From Dictyostelium discoideum (lineage: Eukaryota), in NCBI GenBank assembly GCA_000004695.1, contig CM000151.3, positions 1,472,001-1,536,000 on the forward strand: 64,000 nt of DNA, read 5' to 3'. The notes beneath the pieces are model-generated. The model was not told where the DNA came from. It ran no database searches and saw nothing but the letters and a program-made list of their open reading frames with translations. Shown here in pieces: positions 49,331-64,000 of the stretch; position 1 is the first letter of the stretch, and each line of letters starts with the position of its first letter. The position numbers and the translations under genes are program-made.

Positions 49331-50810
49331 TTAAAAAATAATTTAATAAAAATATTAATATTAATTAATATTTTTAAATAAATAAATATAGAGAAGATAA
49401 TGGATTTATAAGGTATATTGAAGAATCAATGGAATTATTTAATGATATTAGTTCAGATATTTTAGGTAATATAATGATACCAATTTTAATTGATGAAGAT
49501 TATTTAATTTCAAATGAATTTTTACCACAAACAAATTCATATGCACATATTCCAAGTCAATTGAAAAAAATATATCAACCACTTCTTCAATTCCTTCATT
49601 CGAAATATCCTCATTTCTTAATTATTATTCTTTATCTTTTAATTGATAGAATTTGTAAATTTAAATTTTTACCACCACAATCAAAAAAACAAAAATCAAC
49701 TCCAATTCCATTAAATGATAATCAAGTATGTATTAATTTAATTTAATTTAGTAGTAATAATAATAATTATAATAATTATAATTTATCAATAATATTGATT
49801 ATTAATCATTTTAATTTTATTTTTTATAAAAGATTATTGAAAGTAAAATTTCATTAATGACACATTGGACATTATATTTTTTACAAGAATTTAATATTAC
49901 AGTTAAAAAACAAGAAGGTTTAGTTAATTATAAAATCGATTTACCATATAGACATATATTAGAGAAATGTATTGAAAATATTCATTCAAAATATTGTCAA
50001 AAGATTTTAAATGTTGCAATGAAGAAAAATTTAGATGGAAGTAAAAGAGTATATACAACAGCAACAAATAAAAAAAAGAATAAATTAAATTCAGCAACTA
50101 TTTCAAATTTGGACTCAACTGATTTAGATTTAGATCCTGATGAAAAAATAAATGATTCTGGTGAACCTCAAATAAACTATTCAGTCGATCAAGTTTTATC
50201 AAATTTAAATAGTAATAATAATAGTAGTGATATTAAAAATTTATCAACATCAACTTCAACTTCAAAATCAACAAAGTGGAAATTGCAAAATCAATGGATT
50301 TCCTCACCAATTGGTGTATTACCACCTCCAAATGATCAAAATTCTTCAACTTTTGATTTGTTGGATGACTTGGATGATAATTTAGATCTTGGTAATTTCG
50401 TTGAAGTTTCTTCAGTAGATTATACCACTAAAGATCCATCATTACACAATAGTCAATCTTTATTTTCAAAAATTAAAAATATATATCCAAATTTAAATAA
50501 GAATTCAATCATAAGAAAAGAATTTGTAAATGAAATTAAAAATGAAAAAGAAAATGAAAAAGAAAAAGAAAATAAAAATGAAAAAGAAAATAAAAATGAA
50601 AATGAAAATGAAAAGAATAAAGATGAAAATGAAAACAACAAAGATGAAAATGAAAAGAATGAAGAAGATGATGATGTAATTGAAATACCCCAACCAATTT
50701 TAAAAAAACAAAAAACCTCAACAACTTCAAGTGTTCCAAAAAAAAACCAACAAAAAGGAAAAACAAAAGGAAAAAGTAATGCTTTAGATGACTTTTTATT
50801 TTGGAAATAA
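48760..50810 (+). CDS. Las1-like pre-rRNA processing protein. Three exons, 48760..49292, 49392..49725, 49833..50810.
   Basis: The N-terminal Las1 signatures are W.DW.EW (CWFDWDEWKNIY), ..AIKRLSAWRSRNKLPISIEVTGYFVEL.. and the HEASH-type motif DIRHESSHGKLPHLQLLKPISITALDWLNDYYW. Splice junctions are ga|gtttgt..atag| (phase 2) and caa|gtatgt..aaaag| (phase 0). The total CDS is 1845 nt and in frame. The acidic KENE-repeat C-terminus is typical of Las1L proteins. Confidence 0.65.
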
Positions 50811-50911
50811 ATAAATAAATAAAAATAAAAAGGATTTGATCTTTTTTGTTTTAATATTACATTTATTATTATTTTATATTATTTATTTTTTTTTTTATTT
50901 TTTTTTTTTAA

Positions 50912-52243
50912 TTAAAATAATCTTGGATCATTTTTTCTTTCCCAAACAGGGTAACGATTACGATTACAATTATAAAACCATGGTAAAATAGCGACTTCTT
51001 TTTTAAAGAAATCATCCATTGTGCTAATATCTTGAATTTTATAAGCGTGGTCAGATTTTGTTTCTAATAAACGAAGTTCTAATTTTTGAATATTTCCATT
51101 TTGAATGTCATCTGAAAAATTTTTAACATGAGTTTCATTTTTGATACCACATTCAGTACATGATAAATATTTCACCATTTGGAATGGTAAATAACCATAA
51201 TGAGTCATATGCATTCCACCCAGCATATAGTGACCCGAAGTACCACGATTTCTAGATGGTGCTTTAGTTGTTGATTTTGCTCTTTTCAATGTATAAAAAG
51301 TCGGATCACCAAGTGTATATGGATTATTTGGTACTGAATAAAAAGGTTTAAAAACTTGATTAATTGGACCATACGGGAACCAAATACCAATATCAACAAT
51401 ATCAACACTTTTTCTAAATTGGCAATTCTTTAAATAATGTAAATTAATTCTTGCACTGATTTCATCGGTATCGCCAAACCCAATAATATCATCATCACCA
51501 TATTGGTTTGTTCTCTCATTCCAGTATAAAAACTTTTGCCAACGACGAGTTTCCTGATAACTTTCTGCATCGAATAAACCTTTACCATTCTCTTCATCAG
51601 TATCATCTAAAATTAAATGTACAACTTTATCTTGAAATTTAATGAAACGATCTTGAAATTTAACATGTTCCCAAATCAATGGTTTTTTCATTTTATGATA
51701 ATGTGTTACTGTTGATTCGAGAATAAAGAAATGGTCAATAACATCATATAATTCATTTAAATGAACTTCTAAAACATCAATATCGAAACCAATTTGTACC
51801 ATGTGTCCGATTTTAACAGGTTTATCACGTTTACCTGAGAATACTCTTGGATATTTCCCACAAACAGAATTATTAATAATTGGTAAAGGTTCAGGTTTAC
51901 ATGATTCATTAATTGGCACTAATGGCGGTTCAATTAAATAGTTTGATAATGTTAAAATCAACATTTGTGAATATTTATCTGTATTTTCAGTTTTACCAGT
52001 TCTTGCTGCTGCTTTAAAATCCTCCCATGGGAAATTATTCATGTCCTGTGTAAAATTCTTTCCTCTAAATTCATAATCTATATTATAATTTGATACTTGT
52101 TGTTTGTTATTTGATAAGTGATATATATTTTCTGTTTGGTAAACTTTTATAGATTGAGATAGATTTGGTAACAAATAAATCGTGTAGGTCGCCACAAAAA
52201 TTAGACCAATTAAAACAACAATCCTTGCAATTGTGTTGTTCAT
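50912..52243 (-). CDS. GT17-family glycosyltransferase (GnT-III / bisecting GlcNAc-transferase-like), type II membrane protein. Paralog 1 of 4, with a short stem and no PT repeats.
   Basis: The N-terminal signal anchor is MNNTIARIVVLIGLIFVATYTIYLL. The conserved catalytic region (..PVKIGHMVQIGFDIDVLEVHLNELYDVIDHFFILESTVTHYHKMKKPLIWEHVKF..VVHLILDDTDEENGK..DIIGFGDTDEISARINLHYLKNCQ..) parallels the mammalian MGAT3 core (INAINVNHEFDLLDVRFHELGDVVDAFVVCESNFTAYGEPRPLKF..DDVFIIDDADEIPAR). Confidence 0.7.
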   Translation of the reverse strand: MNNTIARIVVLIGLIFVATYTIYLLPNLSQSIKVYQTENIYHLSNNKQQVSNYNIDYEFRGKNFTQDMNNFPWEDFKAAARTGKTENTDKYSQMLILTLSNYLIEPPLVPINESCKPEPLPIINNSVCGKYPRVFSGKRDKPVKIGHMVQIGFDIDVLEVHLNELYDVIDHFFILESTVTHYHKMKKPLIWEHVKFQDRFIKFQDKVVHLILDDTDEENGKGLFDAESYQETRRWQKFLYWNERTNQYGDDDIIGFGDTDEISARINLHYLKNCQFRKSVDIVDIGIWFPYGPINQVFKPFYSVPNNPYTLGDPTFYTLKRAKSTTKAPSRNRGTSGHYMLGGMHMTHYGYLPFQMVKYLSCTECGIKNETHVKNFSDDIQNGNIQKLELRLLETKSDHAYKIQDISTMDDFFKKEVAILPWFYNCNRNRYPVWERKNDPRLF

Positions 52244-52937
52244 TATATTTTTTTTTTTTTTTTTTCTTTTTATTTTTATTTTTTTTTTTTTTTTTTCATA
52301 AAAAATAATTAAAATTTAAAAAAAATGCTATTTATATATATATATATAGATACCGAGATTTTTAAAAAACCAAAAATTTTACCACACTAAAACAATCGGA
52401 CTATTTCCAATTTTTTTTATTTATTTAATTTTTTAAATGATTAAAAAAAATTTTTTTTCCAATTTGCAAGAAAAACATTCACACTAAATTTCATAAAACA
52501 AAAAAACACTTTTTTTTTTTCTTTTTTTTTTTCTTTTTTTTTTTTATTTCTCCTTCAACTATTCACCAAAAAAAAAAAAAAAAACAAATTAAAAATCCAA
52601 AATATCTTGATGATGAGGGGGAATTTTTTTTTTTTTTTTCTTTTTTTTTTTTTATGAAATTCAAAAAAAAAAAAATAAATAAAAAATAAAAAATCGAACG
52701 AGTTCTTTGAAAACTGGTCCAAGTGTCTTTTGAAAGTGACTTTAAAATTCGAAAGGGTGGTTTTCACCAAGAGGCATTCAAAAATTATTGCTATTGTTTT
52801 TTTTTTTTTTTTTTCAAACCATTTCATACATCTTAAACGATTGTTGTTTTTTTTTTATCAAACCATTTCATACATCTTAAACGATTATTGTTTTTTTTTT
52901 ATTTTTTTTTATTTTTTATTTATTTATTTATTATATT

Positions 52938-54871
<1,934 letters not shown>

Positions 54872-54893
54872 TTTTTAAAAAATGGATCCTAAT

Positions 54894-54934
<41 letters not shown>

Positions 54935-55026
54935 AATAAGTTTTTTTTTTTTAATTATTATAATTAATATTTATAGTTTTGCATATATATATTATTCTGT
55001 ATTGACATTTACAAGAATTTCGCTTT

Positions 55027-55057
<31 letters not shown>

Positions 55058-55798
55058 TAAAATTATCCATATAAAAATATAAAAAAAATATAAAATATAA
55101 AAAAAAAACCTTTATGAAAAAAAAAGGTTAGAGGAAGTCCTAGATAAATAAAAAAAAAAAAAATTTCTGCGAAAGGAAGAAAAAAAATAAAAATAATAAT
55201 AATAAAAAAAAATTAAATTAAAAAGTAGTTAAAAATTTTGGTGCCAAAGGATGTACAAAAAATCCAAAATGTAAAGAACTCTTTTTTTAGATTTTTTTTT
55301 TTCCGTTTTTTTTATAAAATATTATTTTTTTTAATTATTTTTTTATTTTCGTGCATTAAAATTTTAATTCTTTTAATCGTGCATGCCTTGTCAGTCTGTC
55401 AAAAAAAAAATTTTTTTTTTTTTTTCGCCATGATGACATTTTAAAATTAAAAAAAAAAAAAAAAAGAAATTTGAATTGGAACTGGTAATTTGAAAAAAAT
55501 ATATATATTTTTTTTTTTACACATATATTCCCAAATTTATTTTATTTAGTTTTGTAAATGTAAAATTATATCTTTATTAACTAAAAAAATAATAATAATA
55601 ATAATAATAAATAAATTGAATTGAAACATTAAAAAAATTAAAAATTAATTATTCGCATAATGAAAAAAGAGGTTATGTGAAAATTTTGAAAAAAAAAAAA
55701 AATATCTGGTTCAAGTTGATTTTTTTTTTTGATTGAAAATTTGGTTATTTTTATTCTTTACTTTTAAAAATAAAAAAAGAAAAAGAATTTGTCAAATG

Positions 55799-55832
<34 letters not shown>

Positions 55833-56021
55833 ATATTTATTCTTTTTATTTTTCTCATTTTTCCACCTTTTTTTTTTTTTTAAAATCTTTTTTTTTTATT
55901 AATACACTATTTTGGTCATAATTTTTTTTTTTTATTTGAAAATTTAAAGAAAAATTAAAAAAAATTTAAAAAAAAAAAAAAATTAAATATAATTCTAAAA
56001 CTGTTGCTTGGATTTAAAATT

Positions 56022-57485
56022 TTAAAATAATCTTGGATCATTTTTTCTTTCCCAAACAGGGTAACGATTACGATTACAATTATAAAACCATGGTAAAATT
56101 GCGACTTCTTTTTTAAAGAAATCATCCATACTACTTAATTTTGAAATTTTATGAACATGATCAGATTTTGTTTTTCCTAGACGAAGTTCTAATTCTTGGA
56201 TTTTACCATTTAGAATATCATCTGAAAAATTTGTAATTTGATCCTCTCTTGTTATACCACATTCAGTACATGATAAATATTTCACCATTTGGAATGGTAA
56301 ATAACCATAATGAGACATATGCATTCCACCCAACATATAGTGACCTGAGGTACCACGATTTCTAGATGGTGGGTCAGATTTTGGTTTTGCTTTTGCCTTT
56401 TTCAATGTGTAATAAGTTGGATCACCGAGTGTGTATGGATTGCCTGGTACTGGGTAACCCGGTCTGAAGACTTGGTCAATTGGACCGTACGGGAACCAAA
56501 CGCCAATATCTACAGCATAGATATCTTTAATTTGACAATTCTTTAATAAATGTAAATTAATTCTTGCACTGATCTCATCGGTATCGCCAAACCCGATAAT
56601 GTCCTCATCACCATATAGATTCGTTCTTTTATTCCAGTCTAAGAATTTCTCCCAACGACGGGTTTCCTGATACCTTTCAGCATCAAACATATCTTTACCA
56701 TTCTCTTCATCAGTATCATCTAAAATCAAATGCACCACTTTATCTTGAAATTTAATGAAACGATCTTGAAATTTAACATGTTCCCAAATCAATGGTTTCA
56801 ACATCCTATGATAATGTGTTACTGTTGACTCTATTATAAAGAAATGATCTACAATATCGTATAACTCATTTAAATGAATTTCTAAAACATCAACATCGAA
56901 ACCAATTTGTACCAAGTGTCCGATTTTAACAGGTTTATCACGTTTACCTGAGAATACCTCTGGATATTTCCCACAAACATCATCACTAGGAGTTGGTAAT
57001 GGTTCAGGTTTACATGATTCATTAATTGGTACTAATGGTGGCTCAATCAAATATTTTGCTAATGTTAAAATCAACATTTGTGAATATTTATCTGTATTTT
57101 CAGTTTTACCAGTTCTTGCTGCTGCTTTAAATTCCTCCCATGGGAAGTTTTTCATATCAAGTGGGAAATCTCTTTCATGACCTAAATCTCCAACTATAAT
57201 TTTTTTTGTTTGTTCTGGTGTTGTTGTTAGTGCTGGTGTTGTTGTTGGTTTTGGTGTTTGAGTTTCTGTTGGAGTTTCTGTTGGAGTTTCTGTTGGAGTT
57301 TCTGTTGGAGTTTCTGTTGGTGTTTGGGTTTGTATTTGTGTTTGTGTTGGTGTTGGTGTATGAATTATATCTGTTTTTGAATAATTGTTTGTGGGTTGAC
57401 TGTAACTTGGTAATAAATATACAATAGATGCTAAAATAGTAATGCCAACTAAAACAAAAACCCACAGACGTGTACTGTTTAACAT
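56022..57485 (-). CDS. GT17-family glycosyltransferase paralog 2. Its stem contains a (PTET)n/(TQT)n mucin-like repeat.
   Basis: The likely start is the internal Met (MLNSTRLWVFVLVGITILASIVYLL); the printed ORF extends 8 codons upstream. The stem PTPTQTQIQTQTPTETPTETPTETPTETPTETQTPKPTTTP is encoded by near-perfect 12-nt repeats at ~57230-57330. The conserved GT17 core is as in the other paralogs. Confidence 0.7.
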   Translation of the reverse strand: MLNSTRLWVFVLVGITILASIVYLLPSYSQPTNNYSKTDIIHTPTPTQTQIQTQTPTETPTETPTETPTETPTETQTPKPTTTPALTTTPEQTKKIIVGDLGHERDFPLDMKNFPWEEFKAAARTGKTENTDKYSQMLILTLAKYLIEPPLVPINESCKPEPLPTPSDDVCGKYPEVFSGKRDKPVKIGHLVQIGFDVDVLEIHLNELYDIVDHFFIIESTVTHYHRMLKPLIWEHVKFQDRFIKFQDKVVHLILDDTDEENGKDMFDAERYQETRRWEKFLDWNKRTNLYGDEDIIGFGDTDEISARINLHLLKNCQIKDIYAVDIGVWFPYGPIDQVFRPGYPVPGNPYTLGDPTYYTLKKAKAKPKSDPPSRNRGTSGHYMLGGMHMSHYGYLPFQMVKYLSCTECGITREDQITNFSDDILNGKIQELELRLGKTKSDHVHKISKLSSMDDFFKKEVAILPWFYNCNRNRYPVWERKNDPRLF

Positions 57486-57991
57486 TTTTCTTTTCTTAAT
57501 ATTACACAATTTATAAAGTTTGTTTTTTTTTTTTTAATTTATTATTATTATTATATTATTATTATTATTATTATTATTTTAATATATACCTATTTATTTT
57601 TAATGAAATTATTTTTTATGTGAGAAATTTTAAACACTTTTTTTCAACCTTTTTTTCAAACTTTTTTTTATTTCGCCCAACTGTTTTTTTTTTTTTTGTG
57701 CACTGTAAATTTTGCCAAGTTGTCAAAAAAAAAAATCTGAAAAAAAAAAAAAAAAAAAAAATTAAATAAAAAAAACCTAAAACCAAATAATTAAAAAAAA
57801 AAAACTAAAAACAAGCACATTGGTTTTGGTTTATATATTTATTAGTTTTACATTTATTAGTTAACAAGTTTTGACAATTATTAATAATTTAACGCTTATT
57901 TCCAATTAAAAATTTTTTCTTTTTTTCTTTTTTTTTTTTTTTTTTTTTCTTTTCTTTTTTTTTTTTTATATTATTAGATTATTATTAAATT

Positions 57992-59455
57992 TTAAAATAA
58001 TCTTGGATCATTTTTTCTTTCCCAAACAGGGTAACGATTACGATTACAATTATAAAACCATGGTAAAATTGCAACTTCTTTTTTAAAGAAATCATCCATA
58101 TTACTTAATTTTGAAATTCTATTAGCATGATCAGATTTTGTTTCTAATAGACGAGATTCTAATTCTTGAATATTTCCTTTTCCAATATCACTTGAAAACA
58201 AGGTAATTTGATCCTCTCTTGTTATACCACATTCAGTACATGATAAATATTTAACCATTTGGAATGGTAAATAACCATAATGAGTCATGTGCATTCCACC
58301 CAACATATAGTAACCTGATTTACCACGATTTCTAGATGGTTTACCATTTTGAATTGCTCCTTTAATTGTGTAATAAGTTGGATCACCGAGTGTATATGAG
58401 TGACCTCTAACAGGGAAATCTGGATTGAAGACTTGGTCAATTGGGCCGTACGGGAACCAAATACCAATATCAATAGCATTGATGCCATCTCTAATTTGAC
58501 AATTCTTTAAATAATGTAAATTAATTCTTGCACTGATTTCATCGGTATCGCCAAATCCAATGACATCATTATCACTATATAGATTTGTTCTCTTATTCCA
58601 ATCTAAAAACTTTTGCCAACGACGGGTTTCCTGATACCCCTCTGCAGCGAATAAATCTTTACCATTCTCTTCATCAGTATCATCCAACACTAAATGCACC
58701 ACTTTATCTTGAAATTTAATGAAACGATCTTGAAATTTAACATGTTCCCAAATCAATGGTTTTTTCATCCTATGATAATGTGTTACTGTTGATTCGAGAA
58801 TGAAGAAATGATCTACAATATCGTATAGTTCATTTAAATGAACTTCTAAAACATCAATATCGAAACCAATTTGTACCATATGTGCAATTTTAACAGGTTT
58901 ATCACGTTTACCTGAGAATACCTCTGGATATTTCCCACAAACATCATCACTAGGAGTTGGTAATGGTTCAGGTTTACATGATTCATTAATTGGTACTAAT
59001 GGTGGTTCAATTAAATATTTTGCCAATGTTAAAATCAACATTTGTGAATATTTATCTGTATTTTCAGTTTTACCAGTTCTTGCTGCTGCTTTAAAATCTT
59101 CCCATGGGAATTTAACCATATCATGTTTGAAATTTCTTTCAGTTTCAAAATCTAATTCTCCAACTGAAAATTTCGATGGTGTTTGAGTTTGAGTTGGTGT
59201 TTGAGTTGGTGTTTGAGTTGGTGTTTGAGTTGGTGTTTGAGTTGGTGTTTGAGTTGGTGTTTGAGTTTGAGTTTGAGTTGGTGTATGAGTTTGAGTTTGA
59301 GTTGGAGTTGGTGAAATTGTAGGTTTTGGTGTATGATATACTGTTGGTTGTTGAACACCATTTATCGATTGAGCAAAATTTGGTAATAAAAATACTATCA
59401 TTGTCATAATTATTAGACTAATGAAGACTAAAATCCAAACACGTGCTTGGTTCAT
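57992..59455 (-). CDS. GT17-family glycosyltransferase paralog 3. Its stem contains a (PTQT)n mucin-like repeat.
   Basis: The N-terminal TM is MNQARVWILVFISLIIMTMIVFLL. The stem PTISPTPTQTQTHTPTQTQTQTPTQTPTQTPTQTPTQTPTQTPTQTQTP is encoded by 12-nt repeats (ggtgtttgagtt)n at ~59165-59290. The core is >80% identical to paralogs 2 and 4. Confidence 0.7.
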   Translation of the reverse strand: MNQARVWILVFISLIIMTMIVFLLPNFAQSINGVQQPTVYHTPKPTISPTPTQTQTHTPTQTQTQTPTQTPTQTPTQTPTQTPTQTPTQTQTPSKFSVGELDFETERNFKHDMVKFPWEDFKAAARTGKTENTDKYSQMLILTLAKYLIEPPLVPINESCKPEPLPTPSDDVCGKYPEVFSGKRDKPVKIAHMVQIGFDIDVLEVHLNELYDIVDHFFILESTVTHYHRMKKPLIWEHVKFQDRFIKFQDKVVHLVLDDTDEENGKDLFAAEGYQETRRWQKFLDWNKRTNLYSDNDVIGFGDTDEISARINLHYLKNCQIRDGINAIDIGIWFPYGPIDQVFNPDFPVRGHSYTLGDPTYYTIKGAIQNGKPSRNRGKSGYYMLGGMHMTHYGYLPFQMVKYLSCTECGITREDQITLFSSDIGKGNIQELESRLLETKSDHANRISKLSNMDDFFKKEVAILPWFYNCNRNRYPVWERKNDPRLF

Positions 59456-59798
59456 TTTTATTATTTTATAAAATTATTTTACACATATATATACATATAT
59501 TTTTTTATTCTATTTATGATTTACTAGCTTTTTTTTTTTTTTTTTTCCAGTCCAAAAATTAATTTGTTGGTTTTTTTAAAATTTGTGCAAGGTGGTTTGA
59601 AAATCAAAAATATTAGTGTGCGAATAGTGGGACCATTGATAAAAAAAAAAAAAAAAAAAAAAAATTTGTGAAAAAAAAAAAAAAAAAATTAAAAATAAAA
59701 AAAAAACTTTAAAAAAAAAAAATGAATAAAAAAAAAAAAATTAAACCAAATATCGATCTGTTGGGTGTGCTGACACAGTGTTTTGATAAATTCGTTGA

Positions 59799-59833
<35 letters not shown>

Positions 59834-59975
59834 AAAATTTAAAACAAGAAAAAAAAAAAAAAAAAAAAAATTAAAATTAAAAATAAAAAAAAAAAAAAAA
59901 ATAAATTAAAAATAACATTATTTTTATTTTTTATTTTTTATTTTTTTTTACTTTTAATAATCTTTTTTTTTTTTT

Positions 59976-60050
59976 TGGTGTCTCATTATTGTGTTATTTG
60001 GTGTTTCATAATTGTATTATTTGGTGTTTCATAATTGTACTATTTGGTCC
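59976..60050. repeat. Three and a quarter copies of a 23-bp tandem repeat (tggtgt[c/t]tcat[t/a]attgt[g/a][t/c]tatt) in the intergenic region between GT17 paralogs 4 and 3.
   Basis: Copies lie at 59976-59998, 59999-60021 and 60022-60044, with a partial copy at 60045-60050. They were read directly from the sequence. The repeat is ~520 bp upstream of the ATG of paralog 3 (minus strand). Confidence 0.85.
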
Positions 60051-60107
60051 AAACACTAACAAAAAAGGAAAAAAAACAAAAAAAATGGGTCAAATCCTTT
60101 TGTTAAA

Positions 60108-60154
<47 letters not shown>

Positions 60155-60190
60155 GAGTTGTATTTTTATTTTATTAATTTTTATTAAATT

Positions 60191-61510
60191 TTAAAATAAT
60201 CTTGGATCATTTTTTCTTTCCCAAACAGGGTAACGATTACGATTACAATTATAAAACCATGGTAAAATTGCAACTTCTTTTTTAAAGAAATCATCCATAC
60301 TACTTAATTGACGAATTCTATGAGCATGATCAGATTTTGTTTCTAATAGACGAAGTTCTAATTTTTGAATATCACCTTTTCCAATATCATTTGAAAATAA
60401 GGTAATTTGATCCTCTCTTGTTATACCACATTCAGTACATGATAAATATTTCACCATTTGGAATGGTAAATAACCATAATGAGTCATATGCATTCCACCC
60501 AACATATAGTGACCTGAAGTACCACGATTTCTAGATGGTGCTTTAGTTGTTGATTTTGCTTTTTTTATTGTATAATAAGTTGGATCACCGAGTGTGTATG
60601 GATTACTTGGTACTGGGAAATCTGGATTGAAAACTTGATTAATTGGACCATATGGGAACCAAATACCAATATCAACCATATCAACACCTGATTTTAATTG
60701 ACAATTCTTTAATAAATGTAAATTAATTCTTGCACTGATTTCATCGGTATCGCCAAACCCGATAATATCCTCATCACTATATAGATTTGTTCTTTTATTC
60801 CAATCTAAAAACTTTTGCCAACGACGAGTTTCCTGATAACTTTCTGCATCGAATAAACCTTTACCATTCTCTTCATCAGTATCATCCAAAACTAAATGCA
60901 CCACTTTATCCTTGAATTTTAAAAATCTATCTTGAAATTTAACATGTTCCCAAATTAATGGTTTCAACATTTTATGATAATGTGTTACTGTTGACTCTAT
61001 TATAAAGAAATGGTCAACGACATCGTATAACTCATTTAAATGAATTTCTAAAACATCAACATCGAAACCAATTTGTACCATGTGTCCGATTTTAACAGGT
61101 TTATCACGTTTACCTGAAAACACTCTTGAATATTTTGATGTGCATACTGAATCGTCGATAGGTGGTAATGGTTCAGGTTGACATGATTCATCTATTGGTA
61201 CTAAAGGTGGTTCAATTAAGTAGGTTGATAATGTTAAAATCAACATTTGTGAATATTTATCTGTATTGTCTGTTTTACCAGTTCTTGCTGCTGCTTTAAA
61301 TTCTTCCCATGGGAAGTTATTCATATCATATGTAAAATTCTTTCCTTTTGCTTCATAATCTATATCTGCTATTGAAAATTTTGATTTAGGTCTATAATAA
61401 CTTATTCCACTACTATATACAATTTGATTTATGCTTGGAATAAAATATATCATTAAGGTTAATATACCTAAACCTATAAAAACTAATAACCAAATTCTAG
61501 TACGATTCAT
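60191..61510 (-). CDS. GT17-family glycosyltransferase paralog 4, with a short stem and no PT repeats.
   Basis: The N-terminal TM is MNRTRIWLLVFIGLGILTLMIYFI. The conserved core carries DVDVLEIHLNELYDVVDHFFIIESTVTHYHKMLKPLIWEHVKFQDRFLKF..GFGDTDEISARINLHLLKNCQ.. and the C-terminal CNRNRYPVWERKNDPRLF shared by all four paralogs. Confidence 0.7.
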   Translation of the reverse strand: MNRTRIWLLVFIGLGILTLMIYFIPSINQIVYSSGISYYRPKSKFSIADIDYEAKGKNFTYDMNNFPWEEFKAAARTGKTDNTDKYSQMLILTLSTYLIEPPLVPIDESCQPEPLPPIDDSVCTSKYSRVFSGKRDKPVKIGHMVQIGFDVDVLEIHLNELYDVVDHFFIIESTVTHYHKMLKPLIWEHVKFQDRFLKFKDKVVHLVLDDTDEENGKGLFDAESYQETRRWQKFLDWNKRTNLYSDEDIIGFGDTDEISARINLHLLKNCQLKSGVDMVDIGIWFPYGPINQVFNPDFPVPSNPYTLGDPTYYTIKKAKSTTKAPSRNRGTSGHYMLGGMHMTHYGYLPFQMVKYLSCTECGITREDQITLFSNDIGKGDIQKLELRLLETKSDHAHRIRQLSSMDDFFKKEVAILPWFYNCNRNRYPVWERKNDPRLF

Positions 61511-61601
61511 ATTTATTTATTTATTTATTTATTACAATTATATATTTCATTAGTGTTCTATTAATTTAGATATTAATAAAAAAAAAAAAAAATTGGATTA
61601 G

Positions 61602-61646
<45 letters not shown>

Positions 61647-61816
61647 TCAACCGATCGACTATCCGAAATTAACCATTTTGTTTTTTCACACAAATAATTA
61701 CCAGATATTTTTAAAAAAAAGAAAAAGTTGGTATTAAAAAAAAAAAAAAAATAAAAAAAAAATTAAAATTAAAATTAAACAAAAATAAACCGTAAAAATT
61801 TAATACTGACGTAAAT

Positions 61817-61857
<41 letters not shown>

Positions 61858-61901
61858 TTTTAGTTTTCTAAAGAAAATTCAAATAAAAAAGACGTGTTCA
61901 A

Positions 61902-62360
61902 ATGAAAATTATTAATTATCAAGAGTGTCATCAAAAAGATCTTAAAAAACTTTCATATGAATGGTTAGAAAAATATGTTTCAATTGAACCAATCGATGAA
62001 GAGATGTTGAATAATCCAAAGAGTTTTATTTTAGATGGTGGTGGTCATATATTTATGGCACAACACGGTGAACATAATGAAACTGTAGGAACTGTCTCTT
62101 TAATACAAGTTGATGATAAAACTTTTGAATTAGCAAAATTAGCAGTCACTGAAAAATATCAAGGTTTAAAATTAGGTCAACATTTAATGGAACACTGTTT
62201 AAATGTTGCTAAACAACAAGGTGCAACTAAAGTTATTTTATATACAAATCAAAAATTAACAAAAGCAATTGGATTGTATAAAAAATTCGGATTCATTGAA
62301 ATACCATTAAATAATAATAAATATATAGAATCAGATTTAAAAATGGAATTATTATTTTAA
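61902..62360 (+). CDS. GNAT-family N-acetyltransferase, single exon, 152 aa.
   Basis: The acetyl-CoA-binding motif A is ..YQGLKLGQHLMEHCLNVAKQQGATKVILYTN.. (Q/R-x-x-G-x-G/A pattern), and the overall length and pattern fit small GNAT enzymes (..FMAQHGEHNETVGTVSLIQVDDKTFELAKLAV..). There is no intron, and it is compact relative to neighbouring genes. Confidence 0.65.
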   Translation: MKIINYQECHQKDLKKLSYEWLEKYVSIEPIDEEMLNNPKSFILDGGGHIFMAQHGEHNETVGTVSLIQVDDKTFELAKLAVTEKYQGLKLGQHLMEHCLNVAKQQGATKVILYTNQKLTKAIGLYKKFGFIEIPLNNNKYIESDLKMELLF

Positions 62361-62941
62361 ATTTATTTTATTAAAATATTATTATTTTTATTATTATTAA
62401 TATTATTCTTTTTTTTTTTTTCAAAAATTCTGCTTAACTTTTCTACAAACATTTGAATTTAGTGTGGTGCATGTCTGGATAAAAAAAAAAAAAATTTTCA
62501 AAAAAAAAAAAAAAGCGTTCCACAAGAACCACCCTTTTTTTTTTTTTGTCTTTTTTTCTCATATCAATTTTAACAATATCATTAGTTATTAAAATATGAT
62601 TTATAATTCTTTTTTTTTTTTTTTTTTGAAAAAAAAAATTCTCCAATCACAAATCTATAAATTATATTAATAAAAACCAAAAAAAAAAAAAAAAGTTCAA
62701 GCAAAGTGTGGTATGCAGGTAAAAATTTAAAAGAAAAAAAAAAAATTTAAAATCTTGCTTAACTTGTTTTTCTGAAAAAAAATATTTGCCAACCACAATT
62801 CCAAAAACATATTAATTTTTTACTACAAATCTATAAATTATATAAATAAAAAAAAAAAAAAAAAAAAAAGTATCCCCTCAAACAAAAACAATAATAATGA
62901 AAATAAAAAATTTAACCACCTAACACCATATTTCATATCAT

Positions 62942-63420: not shown

Positions 63421-63963
63421 ATGAATATTAAATTAAATAATAATGATCAATATAGTGACAGAGATGTTGCAATTATTGGTATTGGCTTTAGGTTACCAGG
63501 TAATAGTAATCGTGGAACAGAATTATGGCAAAATTTATTGAATGGATTTGATGGTATCGTTGAAACATCTGATAGATGGTCAGATTCTTTTAAAGATTTA
63601 GGTGAAATTCATTGTAAAGATGCCGGTTTAGTAGAGTTGGAGGATTGGGAGTCCTTTGATCCAATTCATTTTGGTATTAATCCTGCCGAAGCTAAACAAA
63701 TTGATCCACAACAAAAACTATTATTAAAATCAACATGGGAAGCTTTTGAAGATGCTGGAATTGATCCATTATCATTACGTGGTACATATACAAGTGTATT
63801 CGTTGGAGCATCTTCTTCTGATTATTCAACATCAATGGCAGAGAATTATGAAAAGCCAAACTTTAATGTTTTCAATTCAACAACTGGTAGTATTGCAAAT
63901 AGAATATCATATTGTTTTGATTTTCGAGGTCCATCATTAACTGTCGATACTGCATGTTCAAGT
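63421..63963 (+). CDS. Type I polyketide synthase, 5' exon (KS domain N-terminus). It is apparently intact and continues beyond the window after a GTAAGT intron starting at 63964.
   Basis: MNIKLNNNDQYSDRDVAIIGIGFRLPGNSNRGTELWQNLLNGFDGIVETSDRW..FDPIHFGINPAEAKQIDPQQKLLLKSTWEAFEDAGIDPLSLRGTYTSVFVGASSSDY..CFDFRGPSLTVDTACSS, then gtaagtatttc. It is colinear with, and in frame across, the region that is disrupted in the pseudogene at 22758. Confidence 0.8.
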
Positions 63964-64000
63964 AAGTATTTCTTTTTTTTTTTTCTTTTTTAAAAAGGAA

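Follow-up and report, generated by a model that had tools for sequence, protein, structure and literature searches.

Minisatellite-encoded Pro/Thr-rich stems of variable length in two of the four GT17 paralogs of Dictyostelium discoideum

The window analysed here is a stretch of 64,000 nucleotides of chromosome 2 of Dictyostelium discoideum AX4. It contains four single-exon paralogous genes of glycosyltransferase family 17 (GT17), called p1 to p4, all of them on the minus strand. Two of these genes, p2 and p3, carry perfect 12-nt tandem repeats in their 5' parts. The Pro/Thr-rich tracts that these repeats encode are best read as coding minisatellites in the lumenal stems of type II GT17 enzymes, where they would form stalks; to this reading, taken as a whole, we assign a probability of about 0.75. 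The variable stems of p2 and p3 are real, but they represent an ordinary kind of coding repeat for D. discoideum. What is added here is the direct observation of stem polymorphism across ten genome assemblies, as well as the contrast between catalytic domains that have been homogenised and stems that are paralog-specific.

Repeat arrays and protein anatomy of p2 and p3

In AX4, about 50 stem residues of p2, and as many of p3, alternate Thr with Pro, Gln or Glu. At the DNA level, both tracts are composed of 6-nt Thr-X units in which the coding triplet ACN is combined with CCA (Pro), CAA (Gln) or GAA (Glu), and in this strain the units are arranged as perfect 12-nt super-units (Table 1). The repeat unit of p2 is GGAGTTTCTGTT on the plus strand and is read as CCA ACA GAA ACT; that of p3 is GGTGTTTGAGTT, read as ACT CAA ACA CCA. 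Both perfect arrays are part of wider, degenerate arrays of the same period, as detected by Tandem Repeats Finder (TRF). They are the only non-reducible perfect 12-nt arrays with at least five copies in the 64-kb window, and the number of perfect 12-nt arrays of at least three copies was 0 in 200 shuffles. The initial annotation of this DNA had counted six copies of PTET in p2 and seven to eight of PTQT in p3. The tandem PTET array is present, but it is made of five copies; the figure for p3 was a fair one, since six PTQT are consecutive and the tract holds eight altogether.

Each of the two stems contains 26 Thr and 13 Pro residues. Together these residues account for 44-45% of the stems of p2 and p3 (45% in p2), compared with 5% in p1 and p4. 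The stems of the latter are 44 and 41 residues long, respectively, and no tandem array was detected by TRF in the coding 5' parts of their genes, in agreement with their previous description as short and repeat-free. The GC content is 38-39% in the tract, versus 32-33% in the catalytic domain.

The AX4 repeat units of p2 and p3 differ at 3 of 12 positions and their Thr codons (ACA and ACT) are in swapped phase, indicating that the two perfect arrays are independent recent expansions. Recent copying of one array into the other can be discarded for the same reasons and because the flanks of the tracts are paralog-specific. We also rejected the possibility that the tracts belong to a different gene or to something encoded on the opposite strand: in ten genomes the Pro/Thr frame runs without interruption into the conserved GT17 domain, and the alternative open reading frames (ORFs) encode gibberish. 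Three of these ORFs had been pointed out as artefacts of the repeats; all of them are present and translate into repeat gibberish inside real genes.

With respect to topology, the four proteins show a single strongly hydrophobic 19-residue window, located within residues 6-26, whose Kyte-Doolittle mean is 2.3-3.0 (the next best window elsewhere does not exceed 1.23). It is preceded by an N-terminal tail of 5-7 residues, one or two of them basic and none acidic. One N-terminal hydrophobic window together with a basic tail devoid of acidic residues is the hallmark of type II signal anchors. The cytoplasmic tail of p2 is MLNSTR (six residues, with one Arg and no acidic residue), and that of p3 is MNQAR. 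The start of the conserved domain is marked by the motif FPWE, and the tracts of p2 and p3 are located between the anchor and this motif. In both proteins, the tail of 5-6 residues and the signal-anchor helix are followed by some 90 residues of disordered stem and then by a well-folded catalytic domain, which is about 373 residues long.

For p3, an AlphaFold2 model based on 63 homologs reached a mean predicted local distance difference test score (pLDDT) of 85.5. It contains a helix at residues 3-23 (pLDDT 87-94), a segment without secondary structure at residues 29-104 (pLDDT below 50) and a confidently folded part from about residue 105 to 487 (pLDDT mostly above 90). This model and the hydropathy place the repeat tract within a predicted disordered stem between the anchor and the catalytic domain; the location that had been proposed for the repeats agrees with both, as well as with the FPWE boundary. 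From the type II topology it follows that the tract is predicted to be lumenal. No chain in the PDB matches by sequence, and no solved GT17 structure is detectable that way. When the PDB was searched with Foldseek using the catalytic part of the p3 model, only weak matches to GT-A or nucleotidyltransferase folds were obtained (TM-score up to 0.26), so that no structural homolog informs the stem. The GT17 family appears to be structurally uncharacterised in the libraries searched.

Perfect tandem arrays are, in principle, a classic site of assembly error, and collapsed or expanded repeats had been named by the initial annotation as what could undo its observation. No support was found for such a mis-assembly of the reference, which we consider highly improbable. 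The separate assembly GCA_054883475.1, in which the locus lies on a 3.6-Mb contig, carries p2, p3 and p4 genes that are nucleotide-identical to those of the window, arrays included, and a p1 gene that differs in one base. This assembly is not a copy of the reference, since over 13.8 kb it shows 22 mismatches and 66 gap positions with respect to the window. In addition, the arrays, of 61 and 81 nt, are shorter than a sequencing read, and the reading frame is kept in all ten assemblies. An exact look-up of the p2 and p3 proteins in contigs returned GCA_054883475.1 only and no short-read (Logan) assemblies. In the protein collection and the contig index, the exact 487-residue products of p2 and p3 are recorded only for GCA_054883475.1 and not for the AX4 reference; the p1 and p4 products are on record for AX4, and the homology matches contained no p2 or p3 protein from D. 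discoideum. It may be that the AX4 gene models are different, or that repeat-rich proteins were left out of the records.

The assignment of the four paralogs to GT17, already made in the initial annotation, is borne out by Pfam: each of them matches PF04724 (Glyco_transf_17) with 52.6-55.7 bits, above the cut-off of 26, and E-values of 5e-15 to 5e-14. This match spans only profile positions 68-197 of 348. Their homologs are labelled by their sources as GT17 or as beta-1,4-mannosyl-glycoprotein N-acetylglucosamine (GlcNAc)-transferase. The overall identity among p1-p4 is 75-80%, nearly all the differences being located within the N-terminal 70-115 residues. The true start codon of p2 is the ATG at 57485, and not the TTG at 57509. 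In an alignment of 63 sequences, G302, D303 and D305, which belong to the acidic motif GDTDE, are invariant, as are 31 further columns. From what is generally known of GT-A enzymes, we take this motif to be the metal/nucleotide site. Sucgang et al. 2011 described four members of the GT17 class in D. discoideum and none in D. purpureum (PMC3188802). The presence of GT17 in the former and its absence in the latter correlate with peripheral GlcNAc on N-glycans, and the predicted activity is the transfer of beta-1,4-GlcNAc onto N-glycan mannose (PMC3188802, PMC11795075). For the p1-p4 family, the prediction is that bisecting and/or intersecting beta-1,4-GlcNAc is attached to N-glycans.

Stem variation and gene conversion in ten genomes

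The syntenic loci of other genomes were retrieved through their p4 orthologs (in GCA_054883475.1, this locus is 21 kb long), and their gene order is conserved. The ten genomes compared are the window itself, GCA_054883475.1, two further D. discoideum, two 'D. cf. discoideum', two D. citrinum, D. dimigraforme and D. firmibasis. The p2 and p3 genes are intact in all ten, and the p2 ortholog occupies the same position in the nine genomes other than the window. Two long Pro/Thr stems (p2 and p3) and two short plain stems (p1 and p4) are found in every genome, back to D. firmibasis. The length of the N-terminal region, taken from the start codon to the conserved FPW motif, ranges from 70 to 78 residues in p1, from 98 to 123 in p2 and from 92 to 127 in p3, and is 65 residues in p4 in every genome. 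The D. firmibasis value for p4 was obtained with a corrected start. The annotated gene (409 aa, beginning with MVYSSG; 375-1754 of the fetched locus) is truncated at its 5' end. Starting from an ATG located upstream in the same frame adds MNRTRIWLLVLICLFGMTLIIYFVPSINQ, and the signal anchor and the invariant N-terminal region of 65 residues are thereby recovered.

In the D. discoideum assemblies, the p2 product has 487, 487, 482 or 478 residues and the p3 product 487, 487, 478 or 490, with p4 having 439 throughout. The change in length of p2 and p3 lies wholly in the Pro/Thr tract. The flanks of the tract are conserved (VYHTPKP on one side and PSKFSVGELDFETERNFKHDM on the other in p3), and the catalytic part keeps to 372-374 residues in these assemblies; in the wider comparison it has 372-375 residues, with the exception of one D. 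cf. discoideum p2 (379 residues). Stem length differs by up to about 35 residues between isolates or sister species.

The repeat period also varies among genomes, being 3, 6, 12, 18 or 24 nt. For instance, the p2 gene of one D. discoideum assembly contains (ACACCA)9.7, which encodes (TP)n, the p3 gene of another one has a 24-nt unit encoding TQTQTQTP, and both 'cf. discoideum' p3 genes have 18-nt units. The D. dimigraforme p3 uses the same 12-nt TQTP unit as AX4 p3, expanded 6.17 times, and the stems of D. firmibasis p2 and p3, which contain poly-Thr and (TP)n, are visibly Thr/Pro-rich. The common denominator is the 6-nt Thr-X unit, in which X can be Pro, Gln, Glu, His, Lys or Ser. From D. discoideum to D. 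dimigraforme, Pro plus Thr represent 28-49% of every p2 and p3 stem, versus 4-8% in p1 and p4. The expectation that strains would differ in stem length because of changes in repeat copy number has thus been confirmed as regards the length. However, these differences are not a simple change in the number of one 12-nt unit, because the unit itself turns over.

Units are thus gained, lost and replaced in frame, with the flanks and the catalytic domain being conserved, so that isolates and sister species differ in stem length and repeat period. These changes would arise by replication slippage or by unequal exchange; the perfect identity of the units, which includes synonymous positions, fits these processes. 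Two of the assemblies labelled D. discoideum, GCA_054859385.1 and GCA_054859355.1, share only 85-95% identity with AX4 in this region (50160-62414 of the window), with many indels, and GCA_054883475.1 is far closer to AX4 here (99.4%). The low identity of the first two could reflect either a hypervariable region or deeply diverged lineages.

The catalytic domains of p1-p4 evolve in concert via mosaic gene conversion. In a neighbour-joining tree of these domains, the four D. firmibasis paralogs cluster together and not with their positional orthologs. In sliding windows, the identity between p2 and p3 of D. firmibasis reaches 97-100% along most of the catalytic region (about 800 nt). The p3 genes of GCA_054859385.1 and GCA_054859355.1 contain a tract, about 300 nt long, with 93-97% identity to the p4 gene of the same genome, and AX4 p3 is only 72-82% identical to those two p3 genes within this tract. 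The nucleotide identity between paralogs of one genome is 88-96% in the catalytic domain and 54-62% in the first 120 nt of the coding sequence; between orthologs of different species, these values are 85-88% and 63-86%, respectively. Therefore, the module formed by the tail, the anchor and the stem keeps its paralog identity while conversion homogenises the catalytic domains. That modules and stem classes have been kept in ten genomes, in contrast to the homogenised catalytic domains, is the best argument, though an indirect one, that the stem class matters.

The same pattern could also be accounted for by a stem that acts as a paralog-specific module for sorting, oligomerisation or shedding, setting the sub-Golgi position or the release of each enzyme, so that the paralogs would differ in substrates or compartments. 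The tail, transmembrane (TM) segment and stem are the only strongly diverged part that preserves orthology, and in yeast the tail, TM segment and 36-residue lumenal stem of Kre2p/Mnt1p are jointly needed for the Golgi targeting of a reporter (PMC2200012). However, if the stems carried a sorting signal, their sequence should be conserved, and only their composition is; moreover, conversion may end at the repeats for no other reason than the loss of homology at that point. On balance, we regard a sorting, oligomerisation or shedding module as quite unlikely. A further idea is that the N-terminal module, and not the catalytic domain, decides the role of each paralog, with the four catalytic domains kept almost interchangeable by gene conversion. 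The long O-glycosylated stalks of p2 and p3 and the short stems of p1 and p4 would then hold equivalent catalysts at unequal distances from the membrane, or in separate cisternae, giving distinct bisecting or intersecting GlcNAc products or distinct glycoprotein targets, and length alleles would shift the N-glycome of isolates and possibly cell-cell recognition. This is a speculative proposal to which we attach very little weight.

Possible function of the stems and comparison with known systems

In the stalk model, the Thr residues of the p2 and p3 tracts would be O-glycosylated in the Golgi. Dictyostelium initiates mucin-type O-glycosylation with a Golgi polypeptide alpha-GlcNAc-transferase of family GT60 (PMC3188802, PMC3769586). 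A tract glycosylated in this way would adopt the form of an extended, protease-resistant stalk. If each residue of a mucin-like segment is taken, as a rule of thumb, to span about 0.25 nm, the additional 47-50 residues or so of p2 and p3 would contribute about 12 nm, and the catalytic domain of these two enzymes would stand further from the membrane than in p1 and p4. The composition of the tract and the distinction between long and short stems are probably under selection, and the exact number of copies is probably close to neutral. The initial annotation had suggested that stem length could tune the reach of the enzyme in the Golgi lumen. Fine tuning by copy number is not supported, since the wide and seemingly unpatterned range of lengths argues against it.

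Different observations weigh against the stalk model. The O-glycosylation of the tracts and their function as stalks are features that we infer. The tract of D. dimigraforme p2 has largely drifted to (SQ)n(TQ)n and contains only 28% Pro plus Thr. The N-terminal region of D. citrinum p3 has 93 residues in one strain and 113 in the other; this difference of 20 residues means that length is at most loosely constrained. The window holds 680 TRF rows and the coding regions of D. discoideum tolerate many simple repeats, so that the persistence of the tracts could be due to mutational inertia and not to selection. Finally, the stems of other GT17 homologs are mostly non-repetitive, indicating that a Pro/Thr stalk is not needed for GT17 function.

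Several of these points are shared with a neutral explanation, in which the stem is an unconstrained linker where slippage-prone Thr-X repeats were seeded once and have been drifting since then; composition, glycosylation and length would be irrelevant and the pattern of long and short stems would be historical. In accordance with it, close relatives show a complete replacement of both the sequence and the repeat unit, the two D. citrinum strains differ by those 20 residues, and simple repeats are present everywhere in the genome. The p2 stems of the D. discoideum and D. cf. discoideum assemblies show 66-78% amino acid identity to AX4, a divergence at least as high as that of the surrounding DNA, which is mostly non-coding (85-94% nucleotide identity). 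However, the Thr/Pro-rich character has been kept in p2 and p3 of all ten genomes and the tract has never been lost; in the same repeat-prone genome, p4 retains exactly 65 N-terminal residues and p1 is still poor in Pro and Thr. Furthermore, the usual products of drift are poly-Asn and poly-Gln derived from AAT and CAA runs, such as that of the neighbouring sulfotransferase gene, and not the G+C-richer Thr-Pro codons. For these reasons, a merely neutral linker seems unlikely to us, and the stalk model is retained as the preferred interpretation.

The closest precedent for these tracts is PsA, a prespore glycoprotein of D. discoideum whose repeat unit is PTVT, present in 3-5 copies that carry O-GlcNAc. 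As in p2 and p3, a tandem-repeat spacer of strain-variable copy number adjoins the site of membrane attachment. O-glycosylated tandem repeats and size polymorphism are the subject of Gooley, Marshchalek and Williams 1992 (Genetics 130:749). In contrast to the p2 and p3 tracts, which are N-terminal stems of type II, Golgi-type enzymes, PsA is a cell-surface antigen with a glycosylphosphatidylinositol (GPI) anchor and a C-terminal spacer. The p2 and p3 tracts also differ from PsA in their units (PTET, PTQT, TP or TQ), in a period that changes between strains and in that their glycosylation is so far a prediction.

The type II glycosyltransferases of the Golgi, such as yeast Kre2p/Mnt1p and mammalian ST6Gal-I, share with p2 and p3 the cytoplasmic tail, the signal anchor, the flexible stem and the globular domain, but their stems are typically non-repetitive. 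In the roughly 50 GT17 homologs inspected from outside the dictyostelids, the stems are variable and sometimes Ser/Thr/Pro-rich, and none contains a perfect tetrapeptide array. No description of minisatellite-encoded, strain-variable stems in enzymes of this type was found in the literature searched, nor any paper discussing the stems of p1-p4, searches by gene identifier included. The founding member of the family, mammalian MGAT3 (GnT-III), has in common with p1-p4 the PF04724 domain, the GDTDE motif and the predicted class of activity. For the Dictyostelium GT17 enzymes, activity and acceptor (bisecting or intersecting) have yet to be assigned to individual genes.

The tracts also resemble the variable number tandem repeats (VNTRs) of mucin-like proteins, such as MUC1 and Trypanosoma cruzi gp72, since in all these cases Thr/Pro-rich tandem units derive from coding minisatellites and dense O-glycosylation is predicted. 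The Thr/Pro-rich domain of gp72 includes the sequence PTVTPTPP, and it exemplifies a type of glycosylated domain that is common in protist surface proteins (PMC3630849). The p2 and p3 tracts differ from the mucin VNTRs in being much shorter (about 50 residues) and in belonging to the stem of an enzyme rather than to a mucin that is secreted or exposed on the surface.

Should the stalks prove to be glycosylated and their length to be important, p2 and p3 would offer a natural allelic series to study how far a glycosyltransferase must stand off the Golgi membrane: four near-identical catalytic domains mounted on two classes of stem, with stalk lengths that differ by up to about 35 residues among wild isolates. 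They could also help to assign the bisecting and intersecting GlcNAc-transferase activities to individual Dictyostelium genes. If the tracts are merely tolerated, they would constitute a tidy case of how coding repeats turn over where a genome is rich in repeats, and a reason for caution over off-frame ORFs. The two regions would also be useful as strain-typing markers.

Feature coordinates and neighbourhood of the GT17 cluster

Table 1. Coordinates, within the window, of the GT17 paralogs, their repeat tracts and the surrounding elements.
Feature	Positions	Strand	Details
GT17 paralog 1 (p1, DDB_G0272276)	50912-52243	minus	443 aa; product identical to XP_645228.1; Pfam match; short repeat-free stem
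GT17 paralog 2 (p2)	56022-57485	minus	487 aa from ATG, single exon; PF04724, 54.6 bits
p2 signal anchor (TM)	57411-57467	minus	residues 7-25, LWVFVLVGITILASIVYLL; Kyte-Doolittle mean 2.62, next best 1.19
p2 Pro/Thr-rich tract	57207-57359	minus	residues 43-93, TPTPTQTQIQTQT(PTET)5QTPKPTTTPALTTTPEQT
p2 perfect 12-nt minisatellite	57260-57320	minus	61 nt, 5.08 copies; encodes (PTET)5, residues 56-75
p2 wider degenerate array	57219-57359		period 12, 11.8 copies, 82% matches (TRF)
Artefactual off-frame ORF in p2	57175-57465	minus	96 aa, ..NSNRNSNR..; overlaps the conserved GT17 frame
Artefactual antisense ORF opposite p2	57206-57427	plus	73 aa, ..EFLLEFLL..
GT17 paralog 3 (p3)	57992-59455	minus	487 aa, single exon; PF04724, 53.5 bits; AlphaFold2 model
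p3 signal anchor	59384-59440	minus	residues 6-24, VWILVFISLIIMTMIVFLL; Kyte-Doolittle mean 3.02
p3 Pro/Thr/Gln-rich tract	59174-59332	minus	residues 42-94; TRF array; low pLDDT
p3 perfect 12-nt minisatellite	59187-59267	minus	81 nt, 6.75 copies; six consecutive PTQT, residues 67-90
p3 wider degenerate array	59187-59309		period 12, 10.2 copies, 91% matches (TRF)
Artefactual off-frame ORF in p3	59152-59361	minus	69 aa, ..HQLKHQLK..
GT17 paralog 4 (p4, DDB_G0272170)	60191-61510	minus	439 aa; product identical to XP_645232.1; Pfam match; short repeat-free stem
Sulfotransferase gene (Sulfotransfer_2, PF03567)	52938-54871	minus	ORF pieces 52938-53528 and 53624-54871
(ATT)69 of the sulfotransferase gene	54404-54610		very long poly-Asn tract
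Intergenic 44-nt tandem repeat	52803-52902		2.3 copies, 96% matches
Intergenic 23-nt tandem repeat	59974-60048		TTTGGTGTTTCATAATTGTATTA; 3.3 copies, 92% matches
GNAT acetyltransferase gene (PF00583)	61902-62360	plus	flanks the GT17 cluster
Polyketide synthase gene, start	63421-63993	plus	large gene; ketoacyl-synthase N-terminus; flanks the GT17 cluster

A sulfotransferase gene, whose product has an N-terminal hydrophobic segment, is located between p1 and p2, and its position is conserved in most of the fetched loci. Since the N-glycans of D. discoideum are sulphated, this gene and the GT17 genes may form a small cluster devoted to N-glycan modification. Two intergenic tandem repeats are unusually complex for this AT-rich DNA and could be promoter elements: the 44-nt repeat lies between p1 and the sulfotransferase gene, immediately downstream of the latter, and the 23-nt repeat upstream of p3, between p3 and p4. 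The GNAT acetyltransferase and polyketide synthase genes are both conserved in most of the syntenic loci.

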